This document shows positions 6,871 to 44,700 of a DNA stretch of 62,719 bases, piece after piece (positions within the stretch are counted from its first letter, which is position 1; each line of letters starts with the position of its first letter). Location: the NCBI GenBank assembly GCA_964574035.1, contig CAZNLD010000005.1, positions 1 to 62,719 on the forward strand, given 5' to 3'. Both the position numbers and the translations under genes were made by a program. Below the pieces are notes generated by a model that did no database searches, had not been told where the DNA came from, and saw nothing but the letters and a program-made list of their open reading frames with translations. This DNA is from Candidatus Undinarchaeota archaeon. GTDB taxonomy: Archaea; Undinarchaeota; Undinarchaeia; Undinarchaeales; JALTGF01.

Positions 6871-7775
6871 CAAGCCTTAAAACTGAACTTGCAGGAGTAA
6901 AACTAAAGAACCCTACTGTTTTAACTGCAGGAATTTTAGGAAATACAAAAGCACTTTTAGAAAGGGTCTCTAAATCAGGAGCGGGCGCTGTAACAACTAA
7001 ATCAATTTCTTTAAAGCCGAAAAAAGGAAATAAAACACCGAATATTATTGAGATTGAACAGGGCCTTTTAAATTCAATGGGTCTGCCGAACCCAGGAATT
7101 GATAATTTTCTACTTGAAATAGAAGGAATAAAAATTAACTCTGCTTTAATTGCATCGATAGCCGGCGAAAAAACTGAAGAATATGTAGAAACCGCTGAAA
7201 AATTTGGAGATGTTCCAGACATTCTTGAACTTAATCTGAGCTGTCCAAATGTTAAAAGAGGAACGCTTTTCTGCCAGAATAAAAAGCTTGCAGGCAAACT
7301 TGTTGAAAAGGTTAAGAAAAAAACAGACCTGCCTGTTTTTGCCAAGCTCGGCCCCAATGTTAATGATATTGCAGGAGTTGCAGAAGAAATTGAGAAAGCA
7401 GGAGCAGACGGTATAACTGCAATAAACGCAATGCCTGCAATGGCCATCGATTTGGAGACAGGAAAAGCAATTTTTAAGAGAAAAATAGGAGGTTTGTCAG
7501 GACCTGCATTGAAACCTATTGCTTTGAGATGCGTTTATGAGATTGCAAATACTGTTGAAATACCTGTAATTGGAACCGGCGGAATTAGCTCGGGAGAAGA
7601 CGCCGCTGAAATGTTAATGGCCGGTGCATCAGCTGTAGGAATTGGAACTGCAGTCAGGAAGTATGATTTGGATGTTTTTAACAAGGTAAATAAAGAATTG
7701 AAAGAATATCTGGATAGAAAAAAGTTTAAAAGGGTAGATAATATAGTAGGATTGACTATTAAAGGAGGTAAATAA
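6867..7775 (+). CDS. pyrD: Dihydroorotate dehydrogenase 1B, catalytic subunit
   Basis: KNPTVLTAGILG, NSMGLPNPG, LNLSCPN, GGLSGPALKPIALR, IGTGGI. Confidence 0.9.
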   Translation: MTSLKTELAGVKLKNPTVLTAGILGNTKALLERVSKSGAGAVTTKSISLKPKKGNKTPNIIEIEQGLLNSMGLPNPGIDNFLLEIEGIKINSALIASIAGEKTEEYVETAEKFGDVPDILELNLSCPNVKRGTLFCQNKKLAGKLVEKVKKKTDLPVFAKLGPNVNDIAGVAEEIEKAGADGITAINAMPAMAIDLETGKAIFKRKIGGLSGPALKPIALRCVYEIANTVEIPVIGTGGISSGEDAAEMLMAGASAVGIGTAVRKYDLDVFNKVNKELKEYLDRKKFKRVDNIVGLTIKGGK

Positions 7776-8787: not shown

Positions 8788-9998
8788 ATGCAGACTTAAT
8801 TTTAAAAAACGGAAAAATAGTGAAGCCGGAGGGAATTATTGAAGCAGATGTTTTAATTGAAAACGGAAAAATCCTTGACCTGAAAAAGACAGGAGGGAAA
8901 GCAGAGAAAAAAATTGACTGCAAAGGAAAGTTAATTCTTCCGGGAATAATTGACCCTCATGTTCATTTCAGAGAGCCGGGGCAGATTCACAAAGAGGATT
9001 TTTCAACCGGTTCAATGTCCGCTGCTTTCGGCGGAGTTACAACTGTTTTAGATATGCCGAATAATTCTCCATTTATTGATACTAAAAGAAGATTTACAGG
9101 AAAGTTAGAACTTGTTGAAAAGAAAAGCTGTATTGATTTCGGGCTTTTCTTTGGGATTTCCACTTATGGAAGAGATGAAATAAGCAAAGTTGACCCGGTT
9201 GGATACAAATTTTATGCAGCTGAGGAAGAACTGGCGCCCATTCCTGAACTGCAGAATGCAATGAATCAGGTAGAAAACAAAGTTTTTGCAATTCATCCGG
9301 AAGACCCTGAAATTCTTGAAAAGGAAAGCAGGGGAACTCCTCTTGCAGAATATTCAGCAATTAAAAAAGTTCTTGAACTTGATTCAGGAACAAATAAAAT
9401 TCATTTCTGTCATGTAACCAGTTCAAAGAGCATTGAACTTTCAGGAGATGCGACCTGTGAAGTTACTCCTCATCATTTATTCCTAGATAAAAAATTTGCA
9501 GACGAAAATGCCGGATTTGGGAAAGTTCATCCTCCTTTAAGAAAAAAATTAGAAGTAACCAGTTTGTGGAATAATCTGGATAAAATTGATACATTTGCTA
9601 CAGATCATGCACCCCATACTATTGAAGAAAAACAGAGCAAGAATCCACCGCCCGGCTTCCCTGGAGTTGAAACTTTGCTTCCTTTAATGTCAGATGCAGT
9701 TTCAAAAGGCAGGCTGAGCTGGTCTGAGCTTGCAAGACTTACAAGTGGAGGAGCTGAAATATACGGTCTTAAAAATAAAGGGAAAATTGAACCTGGATCT
9801 GATGCTGATTTTGCAATTTTGGACAGGAAAAAAGAGTGGAAGATTGAAGGTGATAAGCTGCATTCAAAATGCGGATGGACCCCTTACGAAGGAAGAGAAG
9901 TAAAAGGCAGGGTGGAAAAAACTATTTTAAGAGGAAAGTTAATTGTAGATCAGAGAGAATTCTTGGGCAGAAAAGGATTTGGAGAATACCTTAAATGA
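8784..9998 (+). CDS. pyrC: Dihydroorotase
   Basis: PGIIDPHVHFREPG, TDHAPH, amidohydrolase pattern. ATGA overlap with pyrK. Confidence 0.85.
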   Translation: MNADLILKNGKIVKPEGIIEADVLIENGKILDLKKTGGKAEKKIDCKGKLILPGIIDPHVHFREPGQIHKEDFSTGSMSAAFGGVTTVLDMPNNSPFIDTKRRFTGKLELVEKKSCIDFGLFFGISTYGRDEISKVDPVGYKFYAAEEELAPIPELQNAMNQVENKVFAIHPEDPEILEKESRGTPLAEYSAIKKVLELDSGTNKIHFCHVTSSKSIELSGDATCEVTPHHLFLDKKFADENAGFGKVHPPLRKKLEVTSLWNNLDKIDTFATDHAPHTIEEKQSKNPPPGFPGVETLLPLMSDAVSKGRLSWSELARLTSGGAEIYGLKNKGKIEPGSDADFAILDRKKEWKIEGDKLHSKCGWTPYEGREVKGRVEKTILRGKLIVDQREFLGRKGFGEYLK

Positions 9999-19328: not shown

Positions 19329-20813
19329 TTACCAGTTTTCAAGAACTTCAGTAATTAATCTTACACCATAACCAGTTGCCCCTTTGCTTGCATATGGTTT
19401 TGGGTTCTTTGTCTTTTCAATGTAAGCTGTTCCGGCTATATCTAAGTGAGCCCAGTCCGTGTTTTCAGGGACAAAATGTTCAAGAAATGCAGCTGCAGTA
19501 ATTGCTCCCGCCCCTTCTTCGCCTATATTTTTTACATCAGCTACATCTGATTCAAGCTGTTTTTTATATTCTTCCCAGAGAGGAAGCTGCCAAACTTTTT
19601 CAGAGGTCTGCTCTGCTGCATTTTCTATTTTCTGAATGAGCTTCTTATTGTTTCCTAGGAGTCCGGCTGAGACATAACCGAGGGCTACAACACAGGAACC
19701 AGTTAGAGTTGCCATGTCAATAATTGCTTTTGGTTTGTATTTTTTAGAATATGCTAAAGTATCCGCCATAATCAGTCTCCCTTCTGCATCCGTGTTTATG
19801 ATTTCAATGGTTTTGCCTGAGTGTGATTTTATAATATCCCTTGGTTTTTGTGCATCTCCTCCTGTCAGATTTTCAGTTAAAGGAGTTAAACCGATCAAAT
19901 GGATTGAGAGTTTAAGTTCGGCTGCTGCTTTAATTATTCCGTAGACTGCAAGAGCCCCGCATTTATCATAGTGCATATTGTTCATGGCCTTTGTCGGCTT
20001 AATATCTAGACCGCCTGAATCGAAAGTTACTCCTTTTCCTACTAAAACAACAGGTCCTTTTTTACCCCCTTTATACTCAAAAACAACAAGTCTCGGTTCT
20101 TTTGCAGATCCAGCTGAAACTCCGAGGATTGCATTCATATTTTTCTTTTTCATGTCCGATTTTGTTAGGGTTTTGACAGATAATTTTTTATATTTTTTAG
20201 CAATTTTTTTGGCTTCTTTTGCTAAGTATTTAGGTGTTGCAATATTTGCAGGAAGGTCCTGCAAGCTTCTTGTGTAATTAGCAGACTCTGCAAGAATTTT
20301 TCCCCGTTCTGCTGCTTTTTTAACTTTCTTCTTCTTGCCAGGGCAGCCGATTTCAAAGATTTTAATTTCTTTGTCCTCATTATCTTTTTTTGTTTTGTAT
20401 TTATCAAAAGAATATGAAGCAAGATACGCTCCTTCTGCTAAAAGAGATGCAAAAGTATCTACTCCGAGAAGATTTGGCAGGTAAGCAGTAATTTTTTCAG
20501 CACCTTTATTTTTAGCGTAATTAAAAAATGTTGCTGAAGCCTGTCTTATGTTATCGGTTTTGTAGTCTTCTTTCTTTCCAATTCCGATAAGAAGGATTTT
20601 TTCAGCCGGAAGATTTCCTAAAGAAGGAATAACAAATGTTTCATTGAGCTCTCCTTTGAATTCCTTATCTTTCATTGAATTTGTTATTTGGTTGTTGACA
20701 TTGTTATCCAGTGTTTTAAACCGGTACGGCATGTCTTCATCTTGATGTAGAAATACTGCAAGGACATCTGTTTCGATGTCGTGTGGTTTTGACTTATTAA
20801 TTTCTAAATTCAT
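19329..20813 (-). CDS. pepA: Leucyl aminopeptidase (M17)
   Basis: VGKGVTFDSGG and NTDAEGRL. Start moved to the ATG at 20813 (MNLEINK...). The 52-codon extension in the ORF track reads through the repeat-bearing intergenic DNA. Confidence 0.9.
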   Translation of the reverse strand: MNLEINKSKPHDIETDVLAVFLHQDEDMPYRFKTLDNNVNNQITNSMKDKEFKGELNETFVIPSLGNLPAEKILLIGIGKKEDYKTDNIRQASATFFNYAKNKGAEKITAYLPNLLGVDTFASLLAEGAYLASYSFDKYKTKKDNEDKEIKIFEIGCPGKKKKVKKAAERGKILAESANYTRSLQDLPANIATPKYLAKEAKKIAKKYKKLSVKTLTKSDMKKKNMNAILGVSAGSAKEPRLVVFEYKGGKKGPVVLVGKGVTFDSGGLDIKPTKAMNNMHYDKCGALAVYGIIKAAAELKLSIHLIGLTPLTENLTGGDAQKPRDIIKSHSGKTIEIINTDAEGRLIMADTLAYSKKYKPKAIIDMATLTGSCVVALGYVSAGLLGNNKKLIQKIENAAEQTSEKVWQLPLWEEYKKQLESDVADVKNIGEEGAGAITAAAFLEHFVPENTDWAHLDIAGTAYIEKTKNPKPYASKGATGYGVRLITEVLENW

Positions 20814-20938
20814 ATATAGAGATATGCGTAGAAAGTTTTTAAAGTTATTGGAAATTCGGAAAAGAAAACATTTTGCCTCCTTTTGATTTTTAAGTGAAAG
20901 ATGGGCCGACAACCATCGATTTTGGAGCAGAACAGCTT

Positions 20939-21189
20939 TGTGAGGAAAAAAGTTTCGGTTAATCCTCACATTTCGGCTTCAAACCGACGAAAAATGCCTG
21001 AAAACAAAAAAATTAACCCTCACATTTCCGTTTTCAGGCGTAAAAAGCTATCAGGACTCACAAAACTTGTTAAAAATCAATTTTTGGTTCTAAAAGAAGT
21101 CTCACATTTGGGCATTTTGGCCAGGAATTAACCATTTTTACCATTTCAGGACCATTTCTGCTTTTCAGACCAAAAAATTAAATCTCACG
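20939..21189. repeat. Left array of CTCACA-core boxes (5 forward, 1 reversed)
   Basis: CTCACA/CTCACG at 20965, 21019, 21057, 21101 and 21184, plus reversed TGTGAGG at 20939. Extended consensus TTAAyCCTCACATTTCsG at 20958-20977 and 21012-21031. Non-coding. Confidence 0.8.
21131..21157 (+). promoter_or_regulatory. Three phased ACCATTT half-sites upstream of the 21350 gene
   Basis: ACCATTT at 21131, 21140 and 21151 (9-11 bp spacing, about one helical turn). Confidence 0.45.
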
Positions 21190-21349
21190 TGGATTGTTCA
21201 GGAAAATTTTCGAAAAATTTAAGAAAAATATGTAAACTATATAGTGGACGTGTCGTATTACTGATGCATATTGAATTTTTAAATATGTCTACTCGTCGCC
21301 TGACATGTAAACTCACAAGATATATAAAGTTTGAAAATAAAAGAGAGGC

Positions 21350-21895
21350 ATGGATCTGTTAAAAGCCATCGGTTTAAAGAAAAAAAAGAAAAAGAAAAAG
21401 TCCAAAAAGAAGAAAAAAACGTCAACTAAAACCAAAAAAAAGAGAAAAAGCAAGAGCAAGAAAGTTGATAAGCAGAAAAGCAAAATTGAAGACCCGGTTA
21501 TGACCGTTTCCCGTCAGCTTACTAACATACGACGTGATTTACAGGACATGGATGCAGTTGTACGTAACGGTTTTCAAGGACTTAGAGCAGACCACCATAG
21601 GATTCTTGAAGAGCAGTTTGATAAAGAAGACCTGGAAGAATTCAAAAAATGGACCGAAAAAAGAAAACTCACATTACAGCAGATAAAAGGAAGGGTTGAA
21701 AACGAGCTTGAAATGATTGAAATCGATCGGAAGATACTGGATTTGGTTGAAAAAGAAGAGAAAAGATCTGCTGAAATTGCAGAAGAATTGAAAATCAGCA
21801 GACAATACGCTTCTGAAAGGTTGAATGAGTTGATAAGCCAGAAACTTGTAAAAAGGGTTAAAAAAGGGAGAAAAATCTATTACAATGCTAGATAG
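21350..21895 (+). CDS. Winged-helix DNA-binding protein with poly-lysine N-terminus and coiled-coil middle
   Basis: N-terminus GLKKKKKKKKSKKKKKTSTKTKKKRKSKSKK. C-terminus RSAEIAEELKISRQYASERLNELISQKLVKRVKKGRKIYY is a typical wHTH. Confidence 0.7.
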   Translation: MDLLKAIGLKKKKKKKKSKKKKKTSTKTKKKRKSKSKKVDKQKSKIEDPVMTVSRQLTNIRRDLQDMDAVVRNGFQGLRADHHRILEEQFDKEDLEEFKKWTEKRKLTLQQIKGRVENELEMIEIDRKILDLVEKEEKRSAEIAEELKISRQYASERLNELISQKLVKRVKKGRKIYYNAR

Positions 21896-21964
21896 TGATT
21901 TTAGTAATGGGCATCTAAGTATCGTGAGTAAAAGTTTTTAAACCTGCTTAACTTACAGAGAAAC

Positions 21965-22480
21965 ATGACAAACAGCGATAAGTTTTGGAAATTACTGATA
22001 ATCAATACGCTGGACAGTATACAGGAAATTGATACCATTGTTGAAGGACTTGTTGTTGGTATTTTTGGAATTCTGCTCGGAGCAGGCGGTTTTTATTACT
22101 TTGGATACATTGGATTAACGCTGTCTGCGGAGATTTCTTTGCTTGCAGTTTTTGCCTACTTAGCCGTAACTTTTTATCATTTGTATGCTTATGAAAGAGA
22201 TAAAAGGAGAGCAGGTGGTTCGATTGCAAGAGTTATTGAACGGAGCGCAGAAATTTTGATTCTCTTGATAGCGATTATGGTTTTCTATGTTCTGATTTTT
22301 GAACAAATATTGGCAATAAGGACTGTTGCAGAAATTGTCCGGAATTCCAGAAGCGTGATGGCGGTATTTATGAAAAGTTTGCCTGGACTAGCAGTTCTCA
22401 GCATTCCGCTTTTCGGCTGGGAATGGTTTGCTGAGAAAACCCCGACAGATGATATTTTGAAAAAGGTGTTTAAGAAATGA
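21965..22480 (+). CDS. Multi-pass membrane protein, unknown family
   Basis: 171 aa with about 4 hydrophobic helices. ATGA overlap with the next gene. Confidence 0.6.
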   Translation: MTNSDKFWKLLIINTLDSIQEIDTIVEGLVVGIFGILLGAGGFYYFGYIGLTLSAEISLLAVFAYLAVTFYHLYAYERDKRRAGGSIARVIERSAEILILLIAIMVFYVLIFEQILAIRTVAEIVRNSRSVMAVFMKSLPGLAVLSIPLFGWEWFAEKTPTDDILKKVFKK

Positions 22481-22752
22481 ACAACACTACTGAAACAGTT
22501 CAAAATGTTGAGAAAACTGTCAGTTTAATTGACAAAATCGCACACTATCTCGGTAGTTTATCAGATTTGGCAAGCAAAGGGAACGCATATATGCAGGCAC
22601 TTGGATTAAGTCATACTCAATCTTATGTAGTTATTGCAATTGTTGCTTTAGTTGCGCTTCTTGGTGTGTTTAAATTCTTGAAAATCATTACCAAAGTACT
22701 TATTTTTGGCCTAATTGTTTGGATTATTTTGAGTTTAGTGGGAATTTTATAG
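22477..22752 (+). CDS. Small membrane protein (paralogue of 22821-23084)
   Basis: C-terminal half GLSHTQSYVVIAIVALVALLGVFKFLKIITKVLIFGLIVW matches GLSYLHSSILIGIVFLVGFYLTFVMLKIVTKFMIFALTIG in the neighbour. Confidence 0.6.
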   Translation: MNNTTETVQNVEKTVSLIDKIAHYLGSLSDLASKGNAYMQALGLSHTQSYVVIAIVALVALLGVFKFLKIITKVLIFGLIVWIILSLVGIL

Positions 22753-22820
22753 ACCGAAAGATATAGAAACTAAAAGAATCACTAAGATATTGGGAGGAAG
22801 AAAGTAGTGATTAAGAGCAG

Positions 22821-23084
22821 ATGGGCCTGACAACTCTGCTATGGATATTAGAACTTATCGGTGCTATTATGGCTGCCATTGGCGGTTTTATTGGCTGGCT
22901 GTTCTCTGCTTTTACGGGAATAGGCCTCAGCTATCTGCATTCTTCCATTTTAATTGGAATTGTCTTTTTAGTGGGCTTCTATTTGACTTTCGTCATGCTT
23001 AAAATTGTAACAAAATTCATGATATTTGCATTAACTATTGGCTTTATTGGATTGTTTCTGGGAGCTGCAGTGGGGATAATTTAA
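22821..23084 (+). CDS. Small membrane protein (paralogue of 22477-22752)
   Basis: See paralogue. 87 aa, almost entirely hydrophobic. Confidence 0.6.
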   Translation: MGLTTLLWILELIGAIMAAIGGFIGWLFSAFTGIGLSYLHSSILIGIVFLVGFYLTFVMLKIVTKFMIFALTIGFIGLFLGAAVGII

Positions 23085-23593
23085 TCGCTTGATTTCGCTT
23101 TTGCTGTTTCTACTATTGATTTATATTCATTCCCGACTTGTTTTAGGAATATTGAAAATTCTGTACTCGGCCTGACAATTTTTTTGTAATATTTTTGTTT
23201 GCTCCTCTTGCTTGCGAATTTCTCTCTTTTTACGGAAACCATGCCCACTTTTTTAAGTCTTGGAAGAATTATATTGTAAAAAGTTGCTTTTGAATAGTCA
23301 TTTTCCCTAATGAACCTGCCCAAATCATCTCCATGTAACTCGGTTTTCCCTAAAAGAAGGTTCATAAAGTTAGTTGCAACTTCATTGTATACTCTTTGAT
23401 ACTTTTCCGGGAAGATAAGCTGCATTATCTGCTCCAGATCAAGCCTGACGCCTTGGTGATACTTCCATTCCTTCCTAAGCTTCCTTATATCTTTTAACCA
23501 AAGAGTTTCCCTGCTTGGAACGCCTCGGCTGGGCGGCTCTTTTCCGGAATTGGTCTTTTCGCCTTTAACATCATTTTGGTGTGTTTTATCCAT
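23081..23593 (-). CDS. Putative winged-helix protein
   Basis: SKATFYNIILPRLKKVGMVSVKRE resembles a recognition helix plus wing. Convergent with the 21350-23084 unit, with a 4-nt overlap. Confidence 0.5.
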   Translation of the reverse strand: MDKTHQNDVKGEKTNSGKEPPSRGVPSRETLWLKDIRKLRKEWKYHQGVRLDLEQIMQLIFPEKYQRVYNEVATNFMNLLLGKTELHGDDLGRFIRENDYSKATFYNIILPRLKKVGMVSVKREKFASKRSKQKYYKKIVRPSTEFSIFLKQVGNEYKSIVETAKAKSSD

Positions 23594-23625
23594 TATGAGT
23601 TCATACGAGAGAGAGTTATATAAAA

Positions 23626-23855
23626 TTTACCATTATGGTAAACTCTTTGAACATTTTGAAAAAGCAGAAAATTGACATGGTTTAGTATTATGGTGTTGAA
23701 TAAGATATCTCTCCGCCGGGGGCCCGGTGAAACGGCAGGTTCGGGAAAATTTACCTGTTTTTAGGGAAAATAAGAAGTTTTGTTTACCAATATGGTGTTT
23801 TATTGTTATTAGAATATGATAAACAGATGTAAAGTATTACACACCATTTTGGTGT
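23626..23855. promoter_or_regulatory. ACCA-N3-TGGT palindromic operator-like sites
   Basis: TTTACCATTATGGTAAA (23626-23642, perfect 17-bp palindrome), ACCAATATGGTG (23786-23797), ACCATTTTGGTG (23843-23854), and half-site ATTATGGTGT (23687-23696). Confidence 0.6.
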
Positions 23856-24139
23856 TAAATGTCTTTCAGATTTAAAAGATTTTCAATGTGTTTTGCAAGT
23901 TTATGGCCGTCTTCTGTAAGCTGTATATACTTGGTCCTGCCGTCCTTTTCTGTTTCAATTAGGCCCATTTTTTCCATTTTTTTAACTAGTTTGGATGCGT
24001 GAGCATATGTGCAGTCGATATGTTTTGCAAGAGAATTAGTATAAGGATTTTCCTTTCTTTTTATTGAAACAATCAATCTTGCAGGCATTTTCTGGAAGAA
24101 AAGCCCTTCAATGTCAACTGAATTTATGGAATTTGCCAT
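23855..24139 (-). CDS. Small MarR/TrmB-like winged-helix regulator
   Basis: YTNSLAKHIDCTYAHASKLVKKMEKMGLIETEKDGRTKYIQLTEDG is a classical wHTH with wing. Confidence 0.75.
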   Translation of the reverse strand: MANSINSVDIEGLFFQKMPARLIVSIKRKENPYTNSLAKHIDCTYAHASKLVKKMEKMGLIETEKDGRTKYIQLTEDGHKLAKHIENLLNLKDI

Positions 24140-24250
24140 CTCAAAAGCAGATATGTTGTTCTAATTTATATAGTTTAATGTATGGTTAAGTGTAGATAAA
24201 TTGGACTTTATTATAAATCGATAGACTGCGATATGAGTTTAACTTAAATA

Positions 24251-24611
24251 TGTGAGAGATAGATTTTCGGTGTAAACTTGGGTATGAAAATATGAATAGA
24301 TGAAAGTATTAGTAAATGCCGAAATGTGAGAGGTCTTAACCGAAAGAAATGGACTAACAAGAGGAGAGGATGAAAATAGCTGGTTGAAGGCAGGATTTAG
24401 TGTGATTTGTGAGAGCGTAAAGTTCGGATAGGAAATTTGGATGCGTAAAAAAATTGAGAACAGATGGAAAAAAGCAGTTGGGGCTATGAAAATTGAAAAA
24501 ATTGAACTAGTGCAGTATGCTCATTGTGAGACTGAGTATGAAAGTATGAAAATAATACTACCTGCCAAATTTGTGAAACTTGCTTAGACCAAAAAAAATA
24601 AGTCTCACAAA
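24251..24611. repeat. Right array of TGTGAG-core boxes (inverse orientation of the left array)
   Basis: TGTGAG at 24251, 24325, 24408 and 24525, TGTGAA at 24572, forward CTCACA at 24603. GCCGAAATGTGAGAGGTCTTAACCGAAA (24318-24345) is the reverse complement of 20953-20977 apart from a 3-nt indel. The ATGAAAr motif is also repeated about 7 times. Confidence 0.8.
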
Positions 24612-24710
24612 AACAGCAAGCTTAACTTGAGTAGAAAAAAAGGGAAAAAGGTTCTTGGTTATAACTTTTCAATGGTTAAATACTTATATTTCAAAAAGAA
24701 CTTAATAAAC

Positions 24711-25358
24711 ATGGCTTTAAAGAAGCTGACTGTGAAGAAGATAGATGATGAAGAACTTGAAAAACTTAGGAGCATGCTGATTGATGATTTTGCTTCTCCA
24801 ATTGCTAAACTTGCACGTAAAAAAAGTATTAATGACCCTGAAGCAAAGACTGCGTTAAAAAATGTCCTAAAAATGATGCGTTATGTTAACAGAGCATTGC
24901 GATCTGCAGACAAACTAAATAATGAATTAGTTGCAGATGTTTATAAAAAAATTGTAAAAATCTATAAGGGTGGATGGTTCTTTAATAGAGGTGGACTAAA
25001 AGACTTTGTTGAAAAGTATGCACCCGGACTTGCTATTAAAGTTCCTGATTTGGATGCCGAAGACTTATCTAATTCGGCAAAAGTAAAAAATATAATTTCA
25101 ATTATGTATGATAACTTGAATAGGGCAGATTCTAAGCTTGAATCTATTGCTACTAAAGGAGTTTACAAGGCAACAAAAGGAGATATAGAAAAACAGCAGA
25201 TACTTGCTATTGCGTGCATGACTGGTTTTTGTTTTGCAGTTGTTTGTTTGAGTTATGGTTCTATAGGAAGCGCAGCCCAATTATTTATGCACAAACCAGA
25301 AACCTTTGACGAATTTGAAAAAATTGCAAAAAAGAGCATTGGCGTACTTTTGCATTAG
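24711..25358 (+). CDS. Hypothetical protein with C-terminal TM segment
   Basis: ATG at 24711 preceded by TTATATT about 25 nt upstream; the ORF track uses an upstream TTG at 24627. Hydrophobic ILAIACMTGFCFAVVCLSYGSIG. Confidence 0.55.
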   Translation: MALKKLTVKKIDDEELEKLRSMLIDDFASPIAKLARKKSINDPEAKTALKNVLKMMRYVNRALRSADKLNNELVADVYKKIVKIYKGGWFFNRGGLKDFVEKYAPGLAIKVPDLDAEDLSNSAKVKNIISIMYDNLNRADSKLESIATKGVYKATKGDIEKQQILAIACMTGFCFAVVCLSYGSIGSAAQLFMHKPETFDEFEKIAKKSIGVLLH

Positions 25359-27318: not shown

Positions 27319-28044
27319 TTAATGAGACCTTATCCAATTAAACCGATTAAGGGCCCTGACTTCTTTCCAATCATCCCATCTCTCTAAGACATGTTTATCC
27401 ATTGCCGTAGTCCATATCGGTTTAAAGAACTCAGAAAGTGCATAAACACCGCGTTTTACTTTTTGTACTAAAGGAGGTCTTTCAGCATGTTTTTTAAGCA
27501 GATAACGACGATACATTATATCAGAAGGATGGTAGGAAACATCGAGCACTTTTTTAAAATCTTTTGCGGCCATAGCACCATTCTCTCCTAAATGATAGAT
27601 AAATTTAAACCATACGGGTGCATTTTCAATATCTCTATTCAGAACAAAGTCCCAATACTCTAGAAGGATCCGTACAGCAAATTTCTCTTCAGATTCTTTT
27701 TTGAGGACAATGAGAGTGGGAGCCTTGCTACTACTTTGAGTTCTGCCTTTTCCCAGACTTATCTTGAAATAGCGCCTGCCTAAAGATGCGATAGACTCTC
27801 TTTTCAGTTGTTTTGCATCCCTAGTTATATGTAATAAATTATTCCCGATAACATTTAGAATAGTTTTGTGCGCCAATTGAGGGCACTCTGATTTACAATC
27901 AATATAAAATTGTTTCAGAAATCCATTTCCTTCTGCTCTTGCTATTTCATGGGCCGTCATGGCCCATGGCATTTTATGAAGATATTTTATTAAACCTGCC
28001 TTAATTGCTTTTCTGTATAGTGGATTGGGATCTATACGAGCCAT
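27319..28044 (-). CDS. Hypothetical protein (possible C-terminal wHTH)
   Basis: 241 aa. KVKRGVYALSEF resembles a wing motif. First gene of a three-gene minus-strand unit. Confidence 0.5.
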   Translation of the reverse strand: MARIDPNPLYRKAIKAGLIKYLHKMPWAMTAHEIARAEGNGFLKQFYIDCKSECPQLAHKTILNVIGNNLLHITRDAKQLKRESIASLGRRYFKISLGKGRTQSSSKAPTLIVLKKESEEKFAVRILLEYWDFVLNRDIENAPVWFKFIYHLGENGAMAAKDFKKVLDVSYHPSDIMYRRYLLKKHAERPPLVQKVKRGVYALSEFFKPIWTTAMDKHVLERWDDWKEVRALNRFNWIRSH

Positions 28045-29773: not shown

Positions 29774-30400
29774 GTGAAAAAGAAAAAGTATCATTTTACT
29801 CAGAAAGAAATCTCTCATTTGTCCATATCAGTTCTTGTAATGTCATTTGTTGTTGCTTACAGCATGATTTCTGGTACAATAAGTGGTTTTATTGAAACAA
29901 GTACTGCAATTTTAATGACAATGCCAAGCAGTTTCGTCATTATTGCACCGGCTTTTGTTCTGCATGAGCTTGGACATAAATTAACTTCTCAGAGGTTTGG
30001 CTTTCAGGCGGAATACAGGATGTGGACGCAAGGGTTGATGTTTGCTCTTTTAATTACAATTATTTCAGGAGGTAAATTTATTTTTGTTGCCCCCGGCGCC
30101 GTTTACTTTGGCGGAGGGGTCAGAAAAGCTTCTCTGGAAGATACTGCAAAAATTGGTATTTCAGGGCCCTTGGTTAATTTAATGCTTGCCGGTATATTTG
30201 GAGCCGTTGCTTCCGTTTCATCCGGCGTAATAGGAATGATCGGCTCCTACGGAGCTTATGTTAATGCCTGGCTTGCTATTTTCAATTTAATTCCTTTTGC
30301 TCCTTTAGATGGAGAAAAAATATTCAAGTGGAATAAAAAAATCTGGGGAGCAGTAATATTTTTAGGAATTGCAGCATTTATTGCTTCAATGTTTATTTGA
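29774..30400 (+). CDS. Site-2 protease family (M50) membrane metalloprotease
   Basis: HELGH and NLIPFAPLDG motifs, multiple TM helices. GTG start. Confidence 0.85.
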   Translation: MKKKKYHFTQKEISHLSISVLVMSFVVAYSMISGTISGFIETSTAILMTMPSSFVIIAPAFVLHELGHKLTSQRFGFQAEYRMWTQGLMFALLITIISGGKFIFVAPGAVYFGGGVRKASLEDTAKIGISGPLVNLMLAGIFGAVASVSSGVIGMIGSYGAYVNAWLAIFNLIPFAPLDGEKIFKWNKKIWGAVIFLGIAAFIASMFI

Positions 30401-31373
30401 GTTTTTCTGAAAATTTTTGAAGCATTTTCTTTCCTTTTATTTCTTTTTTGAAAAGTTCAACTTCAATTAAAACTTGGTTTTTGAATTTTTCTTTTAATTC
30501 TTTGAGTCTTTTTTCCTGTATTTTCCTTCTTTCTTTGCAGAAGCTGCAGTCCTTGTTTTTTGGCTGAATTTGATTTATAATTATTTTTTCAACAGGAATT
30601 TTATATTCATTTAACTTCTCCAATGCTCGTTCTGTTTCAGAAACTGCCATTTCCTGAGGGATTGTAACTAATACAAATGTCGTCTGTTTTGGATCGGAGA
30701 GTGCTTCCCTGCCCTTTTCTATCCTTTTCTTCATTTTTTCCAAATTGTCAAGTGCTTCTTTTTTAGGATCTTTTTCTTCTGTTTCAGAAAAAGGAAGTAT
30801 TTTTTTGAACATATTCATTGCATTTGAAAGCTGCATCTTTACTTTGAGCATTTTGCCGACCCAAGAATCCATTATTTCAGGGAGAGAAAGGAACTTTAAG
30901 GTATGACCGGTAGGTGCAGTGTCAAAAACTACATAGTCGTATTCTGAAGTATCAAGGAACTTGAGAAATAAGTCAAAGGCCGCCATTTCATCCATTCCCG
31001 GCATTGAACCAATATCAGACATGCCGCCCATTAATTGTTCCGGGTTTAAGCCGGGCATTCCGCCCATTTCGGGCATTCCTGGAAATTCGGGTGCATCCGG
31101 AGTATCCTCTGTTTCTATTTTAGGAGATTCCAATTTTTCTTTGAATTTTTCCATTTCTTTTTCGGGATTGATTTCAATTGCCCATAAGTTTTCAAAAATT
31201 TTCTTTTCTTCAGGACCTATTTTCTTTTCAAATGAATCTGAAAGTGAATGCGCAGGATCGGTACTTACAATTAGAGTTAAGTTGCCGTCATTTGCAAGTT
31301 TCAATGCAGTAGCTGCAGCTGCGGTTGTTTTTCCTACTCCTCCTTTTCCTCCAAATAAGATAAATTCAGTCAT
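30393..31373 (-). CDS. get3: ArsA/Get3-family ATPase
   Basis: P-loop GGKGGVGKTT, TDPAHSL, DTAPTGHTL, CSFC (CxxC), and a Met-rich insert GMPEMGGMPG...GGMSDIGSMPGMDEM. Start taken at the ATG at 31373. Confidence 0.85.
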   Translation of the reverse strand: MTEFILFGGKGGVGKTTAAAATALKLANDGNLTLIVSTDPAHSLSDSFEKKIGPEEKKIFENLWAIEINPEKEMEKFKEKLESPKIETEDTPDAPEFPGMPEMGGMPGLNPEQLMGGMSDIGSMPGMDEMAAFDLFLKFLDTSEYDYVVFDTAPTGHTLKFLSLPEIMDSWVGKMLKVKMQLSNAMNMFKKILPFSETEEKDPKKEALDNLEKMKKRIEKGREALSDPKQTTFVLVTIPQEMAVSETERALEKLNEYKIPVEKIIINQIQPKNKDCSFCKERRKIQEKRLKELKEKFKNQVLIEVELFKKEIKGKKMLQKFSEKLK

Positions 31374-31782
31374 TTTTATGTAAGAGCTTTCTTGCATCTA
31401 ATAATTGATATGTATTTTTGGTTAGATAAACAGCTACACCTTCTGATATTTTTGAAGAAACGCGTTCATCATGAAGTTTTTTCTTAATTGGTCCTCTTAC
31501 TTTAGACGTCTGCCTTTTTTCAAGCATTTCATCTGTTATAGAATTAGTTTTAAAGAGAAAGGAATGCAGTGTGTTTCTTGCTCTCCGGTTATGGAATAAT
31601 TTAATACTTTTATTAATATTGCCTCTTGCAGGAAGACTGATATTTTCCCAGTGCCTTGCTAAAGTACTGAGCAGGTTAGAATACTCTTCTGCTGCAAAAA
31701 AATAGTAAGATGCCATAAGAAGCGTCCTCCTGCCTTTGTTGGCAAGCTCTTCTCCTTTCTTAATACATTCTTCTTTTGTCAT
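31366..31782 (-). CDS. Hypothetical protein immediately upstream of get3
   Basis: 138-aa ORF. No motif recognised. Confidence 0.45.
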   Translation of the reverse strand: MTKEECIKKGEELANKGRRTLLMASYYFFAAEEYSNLLSTLARHWENISLPARGNINKSIKLFHNRRARNTLHSFLFKTNSITDEMLEKRQTSKVRGPIKKKLHDERVSSKISEGVAVYLTKNTYQLLDARKLLHKND

Positions 31783-38499: not shown

Positions 38500-38520
38500 C
38501 GGAATCAAAAGTTATTGGCC

Positions 38521-39036
38521 CACAGAGCCCTTTGTTTCCCCTGGAGGTTGGAAAATTTGTCCCTGTTTCCGAAAAATTTTATAATGGTTCAGATTTCGGG
38601 AAAGAGTTAGCATGTTTTAATAAACATTTTTTGAATTTTTCCACTTGAAATGATGGTGTGTTTTTAAGTTTTGTGTGGCGCATCTTTTTGGTTTAATTAG
38701 TTTTAGTAAAGAAAATTATTATTATTTATTATTATCTTTATGGAAAATATTTATTTATTATTTATTATCCATATAGAAAATATTTCATTAACAAATAAAA
38801 CAACACACCCCTTTGTTTCGGGTGGAGAACCCCTTTATTTCCTGTAGAGCCAAAAAGAAAGCCAAAATGAGCTTCAAATTAAAAATAAAATAGATTTTTA
38901 AAGTTTTTTACAAAAAGAAACTGATTTTTCCTGCTTTTAAAACCTTGTAAAATCTATAAAAGTTAACAAAAAACGCCCTTTTTAGAAACAAAGCCATTAA
39001 ATCCCTTTGTTCCACTTGAAATGAAGGGGGTGTGGG
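38521..39036. other. Chromosomal replication origin (oriC) with ORB-like boxes
   Basis: TTCCACTTGAAATGAAGGGGGTGTG (39010-39034, +) and TTCCACTTGAAATGATGGTGTG (38639-38660, +). Inverted copies at 38521-38547, 38804-38829 and 38830-38851 (reverse complement TTCTCCACCCGAAACAAAGGGGTGTG etc.). Lies directly upstream of orc1/cdc6. Confidence 0.8.
38695..38800. repeat. AT-rich putative DNA unwinding element with about 30-bp imperfect direct repeat
   Basis: TTTATTATTATCTTTATGGAAAATATTT and TTTATTATTTATTATCCATATAGAAAATATTT, almost devoid of G/C, between oppositely oriented ORBs. Confidence 0.7.
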
Positions 39037-39137
39037 TTCCAAAAAGTACTTAATACAACAAATAAATATATAAACCAGCGTTTCCTATGCAAAAAAGCAG
39101 TTGAAATTTTAATTAATTTGCTGCTGTGGGGTAATTA

Positions 39138-40331
39138 ATGGCACAAAAGAAATTAGATGATCTATTTGACAACTTCCTAAACAAACAATCCCTTTTTAAG
39201 AACAAAAGGACACTACAGGACGCTTACACTCCTGAAACCGTCCCTCATAGAGAGGAACAAATTCAACAGCTCGCTTCTATTCTCGTTTCAGCTTTAAGGG
39301 GTGAAAAACCCTCAAATGTTTTTATTTATGGTAAAACCGGAACCGGTAAAACCCTAGTTTCAAAATATGTAGCTCAGGAGCTTGAAAACCGGTCAAAACG
39401 AGAGAACAGAAAGCTGAAAGCAAGCTACTTAAATTGCAAAATGGAGAAGGTAAATACTTCCTATCGGCTTCTGGCTCATTTCATAAATGAACTTGGAGAA
39501 ACCGTGCCCGCAACCGGGCTGCCTACGGACCAAGTTTATAAAAAATTCTTAAAAACATTCGATTCAGAAAGCGGAGTTCATATTTTAATTCTTGACGAAA
39601 TAGAGTCTTTAACAGATTCAAATATTCTCTATGATTTGACCAGAATTAATACCGAACTTAAAAATGCAACAATATCCATTGTAGGAATTACTAACGATTT
39701 GTCCTTTACAGATGATTTAGATTCAAGAATTAAATCAAGTTTATCTGAGGAAGAACTAGTTTTTCCACCTTATAACGCATTACAACTCCAAGATATCCTC
39801 GCGCAAAGAGCAAACACTGCTCTTGAAAACGGCTGTCTTGAACCCGGAACAATTGAAAAATGCGCTGCTTTGGCAGCGTTAGAGCACGGAGACGCCAGGA
39901 GGGCTCTTGATTTATTAAGAGTTGCTTGCGAGCTTACCGAAAGAGCAAGCGAAGATTCAGTTTCTATAAAACACGTTGAAATGGCCCAGAAAAAACTTGA
40001 TATTGACAGAATAGTTGAAGTTGTAAAAACACTACCAAAACAATCTCAAATTGTCCTAAACAGCATCATTTACCTAAAAGATTTAAATAAAGAAGAAGTT
40101 GCAACCGGTGACGTCTTTGAAGTCTACAAGAACTTCTGCAAACAATTAAACAGTTCACCCCTAACCCAGAGAAGAGTATCGGATTTAATTTCTGAATTAG
40201 ACATGCTAGGTTTAATTAATGCAACTATAATTTCAAAGGGAAGGTACGGCAGGACAAGAAAAATAAAACTTGATATGTCTGAAAAAGCACTGGAAGACAG
40301 CAAAGAAATTCTCAAACAAGAGTTATTATGA
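39138..40331 (+). CDS. cdc6: Orc1/Cdc6 replication initiator
   Basis: PHREEQI, Walker A GKTGTGKT, Walker B ILILDEIE, GDARRALDLLR sensor, C-terminal wHTH. Confidence 0.95.
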   Translation: MAQKKLDDLFDNFLNKQSLFKNKRTLQDAYTPETVPHREEQIQQLASILVSALRGEKPSNVFIYGKTGTGKTLVSKYVAQELENRSKRENRKLKASYLNCKMEKVNTSYRLLAHFINELGETVPATGLPTDQVYKKFLKTFDSESGVHILILDEIESLTDSNILYDLTRINTELKNATISIVGITNDLSFTDDLDSRIKSSLSEEELVFPPYNALQLQDILAQRANTALENGCLEPGTIEKCAALAALEHGDARRALDLLRVACELTERASEDSVSIKHVEMAQKKLDIDRIVEVVKTLPKQSQIVLNSIIYLKDLNKEEVATGDVFEVYKNFCKQLNSSPLTQRRVSDLISELDMLGLINATIISKGRYGRTRKIKLDMSEKALEDSKEILKQELL

Positions 40332-41752
40332 CTGATAAATTAGCTCCAAAAATAATGAATTTGTTTCTGGAGAATAACATTCAGATTTCTAGAGACGCCT
40401 TAGATATAATAATCAAAAACAACAGCCCCCTATCGTATTCAGAAAAATTAATCAAAACTTCAAAAAAGGAGGGAAAACTTTTCATAAATACGTCTCAGTT
40501 AAGAAAGGGACTGATAAAACCAAAAATTGAAGTTCTTAGAAGTTTTAATCAGACCTATAAAATTTCAGATGTTCAGGACATGTCTGCTTATTTTCAGGCA
40601 AGGCTGAATTACTACAAAAAAGGCCTGCAAAAAAGACTGCAGAGCGTTGCTTCTATTAACAACATTAAAAGAGCCGGAAGAGAAGAAATGAGTATAATTG
40701 CAATAGTTTCTGATAAAAGAAGAACTAAAAGTGAAAATGTAATGTTCCGTCTGGAAGATTTTTCCGGAGAAATAAGAGCAATTGCAACAAAAGAAAAGCT
40801 AATAAAAGAGGCTGAAAAAATAGTGAATGATGATGTTCTCGGTTTTACAGGAAACATGAGCAACGGCATCTTTTTTATTAATGAATTTACATGGCCGGAC
40901 ATGCCTATACACCACAACACAAAAAACAGGGGAGAAGATGTAATAGCAGCGTTTCTTTCAGATATCCATCTTGGAAGCAGAGAGTTCGAAACAGAAAAAT
41001 TTCAGAAAATGATTGACTGGATAAATGGAGATTTAGACACTCATGCAGAAATCCATCCTCACCTTTCAGAAAAACTCAAATATATTTTTATAGCAGGCGA
41101 CCTAGTAGATGGTGTTGGTGTATATCCCAATCAAGAACAAGATTTAGTAATCAAAGATATTTACAAACAATACAAAGAAGCAGCAAATCTGCTTTCAGAA
41201 ATTCCTGAGGAGATTAAAATAGTAATTTCTCCTGGGAACCACGATTATGTAAGACTTGCACAGCCTCAGCCGCCAATTTCAAAAGAAGTCGCTCCTGATT
41301 TATATGAAATGCCTAACGTTGAAATGATAAGCAATCCTGGATTAGTCAGGGCAGGCAACGGATCAAACGCCACCAATGTTTTAATTTATCACGGAACAAG
41401 CATTGATAAATTGGTCATGTCCGACCCAAATTTAAAAGACGGCTATAAAAAACCGGGAAAAGTTATGACTGCCCTAATAAAAAGAAGACACTTATGTCCG
41501 CTTTTTGAGGGAGATATACTGCCCCAGCCGAACAACGGCGACCCTTTGGTAATACCTGAAAACATTGATGTACTTCATATGGGCCACGTACACTCAAATG
41601 ATGCTCTTGAATACAGGGGAATAACATTGGTTAACAGCGGAACCTGGCAGTCAAAAACAAGCTTCCAGGAATTTCTTGGTCACGAGCCAACACCGGCAAG
41701 ACTTCCTCTCTTAAATTTAAAAACCAAACAACTTACTTTAACACAATTCTAA
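40328..41752 (+). CDS. DNA polymerase D small subunit (DP1, exonuclease)
   Basis: OB region then calcineurin-like phosphoesterase motifs (LSDIHLGS, AGDLVDG, PGNHD, GHVH). ATGA overlap with cdc6. Confidence 0.9.
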   Translation: MTDKLAPKIMNLFLENNIQISRDALDIIIKNNSPLSYSEKLIKTSKKEGKLFINTSQLRKGLIKPKIEVLRSFNQTYKISDVQDMSAYFQARLNYYKKGLQKRLQSVASINNIKRAGREEMSIIAIVSDKRRTKSENVMFRLEDFSGEIRAIATKEKLIKEAEKIVNDDVLGFTGNMSNGIFFINEFTWPDMPIHHNTKNRGEDVIAAFLSDIHLGSREFETEKFQKMIDWINGDLDTHAEIHPHLSEKLKYIFIAGDLVDGVGVYPNQEQDLVIKDIYKQYKEAANLLSEIPEEIKIVISPGNHDYVRLAQPQPPISKEVAPDLYEMPNVEMISNPGLVRAGNGSNATNVLIYHGTSIDKLVMSDPNLKDGYKKPGKVMTALIKRRHLCPLFEGDILPQPNNGDPLVIPENIDVLHMGHVHSNDALEYRGITLVNSGTWQSKTSFQEFLGHEPTPARLPLLNLKTKQLTLTQF

Positions 41753-44700
41753 TGAATCAGGAAGAATATCTAAATCACTTAGAAGATGGAGTAAAGAGGG
41801 AATATAGTATTGCTTCGAAAGCGAGGAAAAAAGGAGTTGACCCCAAAGACGAGCCTGAAATATATGTTGCAAAAGACCTTGCAGATAAGGTAGAAGGTCT
41901 TATTGAATTTGAGGGCATCGGAGACATTGTAAGAAAATTACAGGAGAAAGTCAACACCGAGGAAGAAGTAGCATTTAAACTCGTTGATGAAGTAATAAAA
42001 AGAGTTGATGACCGAGAAAAAGCAGCAGATTTGGCAGTCAGAGCAGCTCTTGCTTTTCTAACTCAGGGTTCAGTGGCGGCTCCTTTAGAAGGCATTGCAA
42101 AAATTAAAATTCTTAAAAATCCAGACAATTCCGAATATTTAGCGATCTATTACGCAGGACCCATACGAGCCGCAGGAGGGACCGCAGAAGCAGTTTCAGT
42201 AGTAGTTGCAGATTACGTACATAAGGCGCTCGGCTTAGACAGATACAAACCAACTCAAAAAGAAATAGGCCGATATGTTGAAGAAGTTAGGTGGTACCAC
42301 AGAAGAAAAAGGCTTCAGTATAAACCTAAAGAAGAAGAAGTAAGGACAATTATTAAAAATGTACCGGTGTGTGTCGACGGCGATCCCACAGAACCATATG
42401 AGGTTTCAACTTACCGGAATTTAGGCAGAGTAAAAACCAATAGAGTAAGAGGAGGTATGTGTCTGGTTCTTGCAGAAGGTCTTGCTCAGAAGGCGCCCAA
42501 ATTACTGAAGCGATTAAAACCAATACAGGAAAAATACGGCTTAGATTGGTCCTGGCTGGAGGGACTTTTGGTTAAAAGAAAAACAGACGAAAGCGAAAAA
42601 GAAAAAGAAAAAATATCTCATATTGCTGAAAAAGAACTTCCTGATGAATTCAAAAAAGAGTATGAGGGTCACTTATTTACAATAGACGAAATCACTGAAA
42701 TTGTTCAGGAAACGAGTGCAATTGATGTTCTTGAAGACTATACCGATGAAGAACCAGAAAAGAAAGGAAGCGACAAATTCCTGAATGAAATACCTGCAGG
42801 AAGGCCGGTTTTTTCCTACCCCGGCAGAAAAGGCGGTTTCAATCTAAGGTATGGAAGAACAAGAGCAAGCGGATATGCAGCCATTTGTTTAAACCCTGCA
42901 ACAATGTGCATTTTAGACCGATTTATTGCAACAGGAACTCAGATAAGACTAGAACTGCCCGGAAAAGCAGGAATTGTGACTCCCTGCGATACAATAAATG
43001 GCCCAACTATTCTTCTAAAAGATGGAGAGGTTAAACAAGTAGACTCTTTTGAAGAAGCCAAAAAATACAAAGGAATGATTGAACGAATTATCAATTTAGG
43101 AGATCTTTTAATCTCCGCAGGCGACTTCTTTGAAAATAATCACAAATTACTGCCATCTTCTTATTGTGAAGAATGGTGGGCGAAGGAAGTCAAAAAAGCC
43201 CAGAAAGAAGAAAAGGCATCAGCAAAAGAAATTTTAAACTCCTCAAAATATCTAAACCCGCCTTTTGAAAAGCCTAGTTTTAAAAAAGCAAAAGAATTTT
43301 CAGAAAAACTTTCAATTCCGATGCATCCTGCTTACACATTTCAATGGAATTATGTTCAAAATTCTGACCTTTTGGAGCTGGCAAAAGCCCTTAAGGATTC
43401 TAAAATCGAAAATGAAAAAATCATACTTGAAAATATTTCCTCTGTTAAAAAAATCATAGAGAAATTATGCATTTTCCATAAGTTAGAAGATTCAAAAATC
43501 ATAATTTCTGAACATAAAGAACCTCTTTTATCATCTATAGGAAGGCCAAAAGAGTGGGATAAAATAATCAAAATCATTGAAGGCAACAAGAGACATAAAA
43601 CATTAGATACGGTCAACAAGCTTTCTGAAATAACAATAAAAGGCAAAACACCAACTAGGATTGGCGCCAGAATGGGCAGGCCTGAAAAGGCAAAGCCGAG
43701 AAAAATGACTCCTGCACCCCATGTCCTTTTCCCGACAGGCGTTAGGCAAGGCAGAGTCAGAAATTTAATGAAACTTTACAAAGAAGAAAAGAAAATCAAA
43801 CCATATCTGGCAAAATTTAAATGTAATAATTGTTCAAGCTTTCAGTTCTATCCTCAATGTCCTGACTGCGGTAGTAAAACAAATCTCTTGAACTTTTGTC
43901 CAAGGTGCAGAATTTTTTCAAAAGAAGAAAAATGCAAAAAATGCAATTCAAGTACTGTAACTTATGAGCAGCAGGAAATTGATATAAAAGAATTATTGGA
44001 CTCTGCATCAAAAAAATTGGGAACAAAGCTGCCTGAAAACATAAAAGGGATTCTGGGTATGTCTACCAAAAACAAAATACCTGAGGCAATTGAAAAGGGA
44101 ATTTTAAGAGCTGAACAGGACTTGTATGTTTTCAAAGACGGGACAATAAGGCATGATAGCACAGATGCGCCTTTAACACACTTCAGGCCGAATGAAATAA
44201 ACACCTCAATTGAAAAACTGAAAGAATTGGGCTATGATAAAGATATTTATGGAAAAAATCTAGAAAAAGAAAATCAAATCGTGGAGCTAAAACCACAGGA
44301 CATTGTAATAAGCGATTACGGCGAAAGTTCTGCTACTTCCTATTTATTGAAAGCCAGCAAATTTGTAGACAAACTTTTAGAAAAGTATTATGGATTAGAA
44401 AAGTATTATAACTGCAAAACAAAGGAAGACCTCGCCGGAACATTTGTGGTAGCTCTTGCACCTCATACTTCAACAGGAATTGTCGGCAGAATTATAGGAA
44501 GTACTGCTGCCAAAGTTACCTTCGCTCACCCCTGCTTCCACGATGCAAAGAGGAGGGACTGCGACGGAGACGAAGATGCAGTAATGCTGCTTTTAGATGC
44601 ACTTTTAAATTTTTCAAAGAGTTTTCTGCCTCAAAAAAGAGGAGGGAAAATGGATGCTCCATTAGTTATAACTTCGAAATTAGGTGCATTAGAAATTGAC

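Follow-up and report, generated by a model that had tools for sequence, protein, structure and literature searches.

The DNA described here, a stretch of 62,719 bp that is referred to throughout as the window, comes from the chromosome of a Candidatus Undinarchaeales archaeon (DPANN). It contains a module of six genes, organized in two convergent operons, and each operon is preceded by a long non-coding stretch that carries an oriented array of the hexamer CTCACA. The boxes themselves, their enrichment, their polarity, their conservation and their co-occurrence with particular genes are shown directly; the two stretches are most likely cis-regulatory arrays of the Undinarchaeota chromosome. 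The Undinarchaeota, with genomes of approximately 0.7 Mb, fall into the marine Undinarchaeales and the aquifer-dwelling Naiadarchaeales (PMC7414124); the paper describing the phylum does not mention the locus. The genes, of which three encode winged helix-turn-helix (wHTH) or winged-helix proteins and three encode membrane proteins with transmembrane (TM) segments, and their control regions are as follows (aa, amino acids):

20814..21349, plus strand: left CTCACA array, the divergent control region between pepA (minus strand) and the 181-aa wHTH gene (plus strand)
21350..21895, plus strand: 181-aa wHTH protein, Pfam TrmB/MarR_2/HTH_24
21965..22480, plus strand: 171-aa membrane protein with approximately four TM segments by hydropathy, second gene of the left operon
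22477..22752, plus strand: 91-aa membrane protein with C-terminal TM segments, its start overlapping the preceding stop
22821..23084, plus strand: 87-aa membrane protein, its stop overlapping the stop of the convergent 170-aa gene
23081..23593, minus strand: 170-aa winged-helix protein, second gene of the right operon
23594..23854 (260 bp), minus strand: internal control region of the 170-aa gene, between the 94-aa and 170-aa genes
23855..24139, minus strand: 94-aa MarR/Lrs14-like wHTH protein, Pfam HTH_27 and MarR, first gene of the right operon
24140..24710, minus strand: right CTCACA array, upstream of the 94-aa wHTH gene

The left operon (181-aa wHTH, four-TM, 91-aa and 87-aa proteins) is read on the plus strand and the right operon (94-aa wHTH and 170-aa winged-helix proteins) on the minus strand. 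An earlier note on this DNA had assigned wHTH proteins to both inward-facing first genes, which the Pfam matches bear out, and had listed one four-TM protein and two tiny membrane paralogues among the enclosed genes; the latter are indeed 45% identical over 40 residues (E 3e-7). It had also called the enclosed genes ORFans, which is wrong for the 170-aa protein, whose family profile finds relatives in 201 GTDB species (Undinarchaeota and Micrarchaeota), and for the 94-aa protein, which has relatives throughout DPANN. The ends of the 87-aa and 170-aa genes, where the stop codons lie, share 4 nt (23081-23084), leaving no space for a terminator between the operons, so that convergent transcription could collide.

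The two stretches are the second and third longest non-coding stretches in the window, behind the origin of replication (oriC), and compare with a median gap of approximately 63 bp; their unusual length had been noticed before. Counted on both strands, exact CTCACA occurs 15 times in the 62,719 bp, and 11 of these copies fall within the two stretches (1107 bp, 1.8% of the window), an enrichment with a binomial p of 6.6e-17. In an unbiased comparison of all hexamers by their densest 600-bp cluster, CTCACA ranks first. Outside the arrays, four copies were observed against 4.1 expected under a maximal-order Markov model. Avoidance of the hexamer was considered and rejected: a dinucleotide shuffle hinted at depletion, but the higher-order Markov expectation accounts for the low count. 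Six exact boxes lie on the left and five on the right, so that the six copies per stretch given in the earlier note are correct if one variant on the right is counted:

Left array, exact boxes: 20939 (minus strand); 20965, 21019, 21057, 21101 and 21312 (plus strand); CTCACG variant at 21184 (plus strand)
Right array, exact boxes: 24251, 24325, 24408 and 24525 (minus strand); 24604 (plus strand); weak TGTGAA variant at 24572

All boxes except the outermost one on each side (20939 on the left, 24604 on the right) face the inward genes, which reproduces the mostly forward left array, the mostly reverse right array and their common polarity toward these genes. Start-to-start distances are irregular: the left boxes are 26, 54, 38, 44, 83 and 128 bp apart, the right ones 74, 83, 117 and 79 bp. 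The best inverted pair reported between the arrays is real, being complementary at 13 of 13 positions in its core (20965-20977 and 24318-24330) and at 23 positions with one 3-nt indel when extended. The opposed pairs at the outer edges are present as well: TGTGAGG/CCTCACA at 20939/20964 and TTTGTGAAAC/GTCTCACAAA at 24570/24602.

Each array has 4-7 scattered boxes. The core of the box, YCTCACA(A/T), is non-palindromic and belongs to the longer consensus TAA(G/C)YCTCACA. Across four genomes, 45 boxes yielded the consensus aCC.AAAAA.TAAGT-CTCACA-w, and 66 boxes from six further species yielded taaCT-CTCACA-Aa. A cross-genome position weight matrix, trained only on the boxes of three related loci (L023, L031 and L038, introduced below), placed ten array boxes and one intragenic box at 21668 among its top 12 matches in the whole window, and the three CTCACA copies outside the module received negative flank scores. 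The intragenic copy (21668-21673, in the 181-aa gene) has a good extended-motif flank, GACCGAAAAAAGAAAACTCACA, and is kept in two relatives (L004 and L023); it is inseparable from the coding constraint on the motif WTEKRKLTL.

Synteny of the six-gene module and of both arrays extends to every Undinarchaeales genome examined. Logan contigs L001-L003 are near-identical to the window (99.99-100%). The metagenome-assembled genome contig JAWOEA010000004.1 (L004; approximately 82% nucleotide identity, with a homologue 93% identical to the PepA encoded at 19329-20813 of the window) and L023 (94-aa homologue 71% identical) show the same gene order and the same box polarity. In an alignment of these two with the window, 75% of the box columns of the left array are invariant, compared with 43% of the other columns (Fisher p 4e-4), and the corresponding values for the right array are 90% and 37% (Fisher p 6e-9). 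Distances between boxes agree to within 1 bp among the window, L004 and L023 (83/84/84, 128/128/128, 74/74/75 and 83/83/82), the spacers themselves having diverged. As is characteristic of transcription factor operators, the boxes change more slowly than the non-coding DNA around them and persist in orthologous loci, and the repeated sites are found in control regions, since the arrays occupy divergent promoter regions. The module is retained in L031 (GC content 46%; 170-aa homologue 55% identical) and L038 (GC content 47%), where the corresponding non-coding stretches hold 11-14 boxes facing the inward genes. The Naiadarchaeum-type loci L037 and L039 are reduced: ahead of the 181-like gene they have one or two exact CTCACA copies as well as CTCAC-core variants, and L039 retains the extended R1 box TGTGAGAGATAGA in addition.

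A survey of the best 80 of the 201 relatives of the 170-aa protein covered 12 Undinarchaeota-type and 68 Micrarchaeota loci. The order 94-like gene, 170-like gene and then a convergent 181-like gene was found in 11 of the 12 Undinarchaeota-type loci. Both arrays are present in eight of the 11 GTDB Undinarchaeota loci, with 3-7 boxes no more than 1 kb upstream of each wHTH gene, and in the other three, boxes are found only ahead of the 181-like gene and number 2-3; taken over all 11 loci, 82 boxes point inward and 13 outward. In the 68 Micrarchaeota loci and in L050 (labelled Woesearchaeota) neither a 181-like nor a 94-like gene adjoins the 170-like gene, and the boxes do not cluster; in 67 of the 68 Micrarchaeota loci no 700-bp segment has more than two of them. 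No boxes lie near the Woesearchaeota homologues of the 94-aa gene. The arrays are absent where the 170-like gene occurs alone and therefore follow the 181- and 94-aa genes, not the 170-aa gene alone.

The AlphaFold2 model of the 181-aa protein consists of a disordered Lys-rich tail (residues 1-48), two helices of approximately 40 residues each (49-135) and an ArsR/SmtB-like wHTH domain (136-181), with a predicted local distance difference test (pLDDT) score of 74.5 overall and above 90 in the wHTH. Foldseek matches to SmtB, CzrA and AspA reflect generic wHTH similarity (AspA at rank 42-50). The family is tiny and confined to the lineage, with 25 representatives at E<=1e-3 among 1.84e9 proteins, and a metagenome scan with its profile returned only two Naiadarchaeum-like contigs that were already known. 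The 94-aa family has homologues at approximately 45% identity across DPANN. Identity within the 170-aa family is 52-87% across Undinarchaeota and 33-41% in Micrarchaeota. Neither Pfam nor NCBIfam has a model for the 170-aa protein, no relative of it has a solved structure, and a sequence search of the PDB found nothing; its AlphaFold2 model (pLDDT 78) gives weak Foldseek matches to AbfR2/Lrs14, MarR and the extended winged helix of TFIIE-alpha. The motif SKATFYN is invariant in the family, and in Micrarchaeota the 170-aa-like gene adjoins genes for a DEAD-box helicase and for eIF5A, S24e and S27. Homologues of the 171-aa membrane protein are 86% (L004), 58% (L023) and 38% (L031) identical.

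The promoters appear to be leaderless: each ATG is preceded, at 22-24 nt, by a TATA box of the TATATAAA type. The elements at the first genes of both operons are:

21228..21330, plus strand: promoter-proximal conserved block of the 181-aa gene, from the interspecies alignment
21236-21245: TATA-like element in this block
21244-21255: GTGGACGTGTCG, in the same block
21300-21308: CTGACATGT, in the same block
21312-21317: box L6, in the same block
21319-21328: TATA box GATATATAAA, approximately 22 nt before the ATG of the 181-aa gene, of the leaderless type
approximately 24166-24176: TATA box of the 94-aa gene, within the right array

Palindromes of the GACGTGTC/TGACATGT type are found at the promoter of the 181-aa gene, and related TGTCA/TTGACA palindromes occupy the same position around the TATA box in L031, L037, L038 and L039. 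A ACCGAAAA/TTTTCGGT co-motif often lies within approximately 20 bp of the boxes and is also present in the right array. The right operon has an additional set of palindromes of the form ACCA-N3-TGGT, with five copies in 23564-23859 that are conserved in L004 and L023; one of them, TTTACCATTATGGTAAA (23627-23643), abuts the TATA box of the 170-aa gene, and the others are located at 23564-23584, 23680-23697, 23782-23799 and 23839-23859. They are probably separate operators of a dimeric wHTH protein. A GC-rich element, ctccgccgggggcccggtgaaacggcagg, lies downstream of the 94-aa gene at approximately 23700-23740 and has been conserved in L004, L023 and, in part, L031; its portion at approximately 23706-23735 may be a terminator or hairpin, for which RNAalifold found no covariation support. 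The sequence GTATGAAAGTATGAA occurs twice in the right array (24279-24296 and 24533-24550), each time near a TGTGAG box; L004 keeps it, L023 keeps it in part, and in Naiadarchaeum-type loci its place is taken by GTATAC/AGTATA repeats close to TGTGAGAGATAGA boxes.

Taken together, these features make it fairly probable that the arrays are lineage-specific operator or architectural arrays, bound by a wHTH protein encoded in the module itself and co-regulating the two convergent operons. The winged-helix protein would occupy the boxes cooperatively, and an extended nucleoprotein complex would form upstream of both promoters and might even bridge the two arrays, which are 3.2 kb apart. The 181-aa protein is the most likely candidate, acting alone or together with the 94-aa MarR/Lrs14-like protein; it is the likelier cognate binder because its family is tiny and lineage-confined, whereas that of the 94-aa protein is DPANN-wide. 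The proximal palindromes (GACGTGTC/TGTCA-type at the 181-aa promoter, ACCA-N3-TGGT at the 170-aa promoter) would give each promoter a control of its own. Distant, unidirectional and capped sites with a conserved spacing of approximately 74 and 83 bp argue for an architectural, wrapping or bridging complex over simple steric repression. Binding, the identity of the binder, cooperativity or looping and the direction of regulation are what we infer from the arrangement.

Several points weigh against such an operator function. The distance from most boxes to the TATA box downstream is 80-400 bp; operators of classical archaeal repressors overlap the TFB recognition element (BRE), the TATA box or the transcription start. 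Dimeric wHTH regulators rarely use sites that are non-palindromic and irregularly spaced. The 181- and 94-aa genes always occur together, so that either would fit as the binder, and the factor may be encoded elsewhere. The organism is uncultured. The box and locus counts come from related genomes and do not represent phylogenetically independent events, and the box survey of the genome covers the approximately 9% that the window represents, which confines the view of any wider regulon to that part.

Among the alternatives, it is conceivable, if rather unlikely, that the arrays are an architectural, centromere-like or loop-anchor element, in which oriented boxes nucleate a spreading or bridging protein (AspA- or TrmBL2-like) that organizes or insulates a chromosomal domain or aids segregation, with transcriptional effects being secondary. 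The many oriented sites, dispersed over 400-900 bp and closed off on the outside by inverted 'cap' boxes, would suit such an element, as would the conserved spacing of approximately 74 and 83 bp, close to whole helical turns, the long helical hairpin and Lys-rich tail of the 181-aa protein, the resemblance of its wHTH to the ArsR type, including the pNOB8 centromere binder AspA, and the variability of genes just outside the arrays combined with constancy inside. However, the AspA match is the generic one described above, and the periodicity is lost in the more distant L031 and L038. Neither the module nor its immediate neighbours encode a ParA-, SegA- or ParM-type nucleoside triphosphatase (NTPase); the closest P-loop ATPase (30393-31397) is of the ArsA/Get3 type and contextually unrelated to the arrays. 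A par centromere array was rejected on the same grounds, there being no ParA, ParM or TubZ gene in or next to the module. Small non-coding RNAs within the arrays, for which the boxes would be promoter, terminator or processing signals instead of protein operators, are a still less likely explanation. Conservation does reach beyond the hexamer, as in TGTGAGAGATAGATTTTYGGT and GTATGAAAGTATGAA, a BRE/TATA-like ACCGAAAAAATAAGT precedes some boxes, and a tRNA-Gly(CCC) gene is embedded in one array in relatives. Against this, Rfam scans of the arrays by gathering threshold and by E-value found no family, and RNAalifold gave an unfavourable covariation term, the only long 'helix' being the invariant R1/R5 inverted box pair; with neither an Rfam family nor compensatory changes, a structured non-coding RNA gene was rejected. 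Furthermore, the sequence between boxes diverges freely, the A-rich stretch only poorly resembles the real TATA boxes of the genome (TATATAAA) and CTCACA would lie at about -20, not at a start site, and no small open reading frame (ORF) in the arrays is conserved among the window, L004 and L023.

Iterons or an origin captured from a plasmid or virus, or a secondary origin of chromosomal replication, must be regarded as very improbable. Oriented boxes repeated in inverted arrays with wHTH proteins close by, weak PHROG 'replication initiation' matches of the 181-aa wHTH (E 0.009-0.025), variable border genes and the tRNA gene adjacent in some relatives could all be read in that way. Yet the module contains no Rep family above noise in Pfam, NCBIfam and PHROGs and no Orc gene; searches with Pfam, NCBIfam, PHROG and PADLOC found no integrase, transposase, capsid, helicase or defence genes in the module; and the 170-aa protein has no relatives in IMG/VR viral contigs. 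A spacing of 25-128 bp is not that of phased 20-22-bp iterons, and a plasmid iteron origin was rejected because of this irregularity and the lack of any tandem-repeat structure of the kind formed by phased 17-22-bp direct repeats. The boxes likewise have neither the sequence of origin recognition boxes (ORBs) nor an orc1 neighbour, and the arrays were rejected as oriC since the window contains a canonical archaeal one, a 638-bp intergenic region located 14 kb from the module and directly upstream of orc1/cdc6, in a Pyrococcus-like arrangement:

38500-39137: oriC
38638-38656 and 39007-39033: ORB elements (GTTCCACTTGAAATGAAGGGGGTGTG at 39008-39033)
38525-38546, 38803-38827 and 38827-38849: inverted ORB copies
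approximately 38700-38800: AT-rich DNA unwinding element (DUE), flanked by the ORBs, in the lowest-GC kilobase of the window
39138-40331: orc1/cdc6, followed by PolD DP1 (40328-41752) and DP2 (41752-45297)

Finally, the module is vertically inherited and syntenic throughout the phylum. This synteny refutes the mobile-element reading and strengthens that of a regulatory unit, and an integrated provirus or plasmid was rejected on it together with the missing integrase, transposase and viral-contig relatives. It counts only against the mobile-element flavour of the earlier note, which had itself seen no integrase, replicase or capsid gene and had withheld a mobile-element call, rightly so. What stands of its interpretation are operator and possibly looping arrays of a wHTH-led unit; an origin from a plasmid or virus, or a function as iterons, does not.

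A more specific proposal is that the convergent arrays anchor a protein-mediated DNA loop or insulated micro-domain, with the 181-aa coiled-coil wHTH protein bridging left and right, which we think improbable. If it were true, the small membrane proteins would be switched as a unit, perhaps upon contact with a host, and the locus would represent orientation-dependent loop anchoring or centromere-like organization in archaea without a known NTPase partner, phylum-wide and 14 kb from oriC.

Known systems resemble the locus in part. Autoregulated archaeal wHTH regulators (Lrs14/AbfR, MarR/ArsR and Ss-LrpB types) are likewise encoded downstream of multi-box control regions; further likenesses are the palindromic operators abutting BRE/TATA at the promoters of the 170- and 181-aa genes and the folds of the 94-, 170- and 181-aa proteins, which match Lrs14/AbfR2, MarR and ArsR/SmtB. 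They differ from the arrays described here, which have 5-7 (up to 10) unidirectional, non-palindromic boxes each, spread over 400-900 bp with spacers of 25-130 bp, mostly far upstream and in two convergent arrays around operons. Short oriented repeats that nucleate a small DNA-binding protein are found in R1 parC/ParR, in the omega-protein heptads of pSM19035 and in the pNOB8 AspA centromere; such plasmid partition repeats are contiguous or regularly phased, their orientation matters, and they have a partition NTPase as partner. Common to both are short oriented repeats that flank or precede promoters, whereas the repeats of the present locus are dispersed, lack an NTPase partner and belong to a chromosomal, vertically inherited locus. 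The ORB and mini-ORB arrays of archaeal origins share with it a long intergenic region with many short oriented repeats in inverted arrangement, but the CTCACA boxes have no ORB dyad, G-string or adjacent orc1/cdc6, and the arrays enclose 3.2 kb of genes instead of a DUE. No paper linking CTCACA to an archaeal regulator was found in the literature. Operator arrays of wHTH proteins as such are already known; the libraries and literature searched contain no description of the box, the convergent and dispersed architecture, its conservation across the phylum or the 181-aa family.

The neighbours of the module are ordinary housekeeping genes. To its left they encode topoisomerase IA, malic enzyme, SerRS and PepA; those to its right encode agmatinase, a PRC-barrel protein, an M50 peptidase, ArsA/Get3, adenylosuccinate lyase, Hef, Orc1/Cdc6 and PolD. 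The neighbourhood ArsA-M50-PRC ... module ... RtcA/PepA-SerRS is kept in all sampled Undinarchaeota genomes, and gene content is variable directly outside the arrays and constant inside; indels seem to be concentrated at the module borders. In L004 an additional GNAT-like ORF of 149 aa (9500-9949) separates pepA from the left array. A 215-aa gene with one TM segment (24711-25358) is confined to the lineage of the window and absent from L004. A 241-aa gene at 27319-28044 is likewise absent from L004. On the left side rtcA replaces pepA in L023, L031 and L038, and in L037 and L039 it is placed between the module and pepA. The tRNA-Gly(CCC) gene lies within one CTCACA array in many relatives (L031 6842-7000; L038 3384-3479; L037 3235-3306; L039 3688-3781; also L045, L048 and L053); it contains an intron in L038 and L039 and apparently two in L031, where it escaped ARAGORN and Rfam. 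The window, L004 and L023 lack the gene: no tRNA gene is detectable across the whole 62.7 kb, and neither ARAGORN nor blastn with the tRNA-Gly of relatives detected a hidden gene or remnant in the arrays of the window. In L039 a 505-bp non-coding stretch between two TGTGAG boxes contains a tiny, extremely basic ORF (MKTRKKKWKKKGKMRWKWEKKRMRRRMRAQKKLRMKAI; 7019-7135, minus strand), which may resemble ribosomal protein L41e.

To our knowledge, almost nothing is known of gene regulation in DPANN archaea. In genomes of approximately 0.7 Mb with very little non-coding DNA, two conserved non-coding stretches of approximately 550 bp stand out. The analysis also identifies the 170-aa 'hypothetical' protein as a core winged-helix protein of Undinarchaeota and Micrarchaeota and locates the replication origin of the chromosome. 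With a defined motif, three candidate wHTH binders and a target set of one four-TM and two tiny membrane proteins, all kept throughout the Undinarchaeales and, in reduced form, in the Naiadarchaeales, the locus offers an entry point into the transcriptional control of an uncultured phylum, possibly into the control of its cell surface or of its interaction with hosts.

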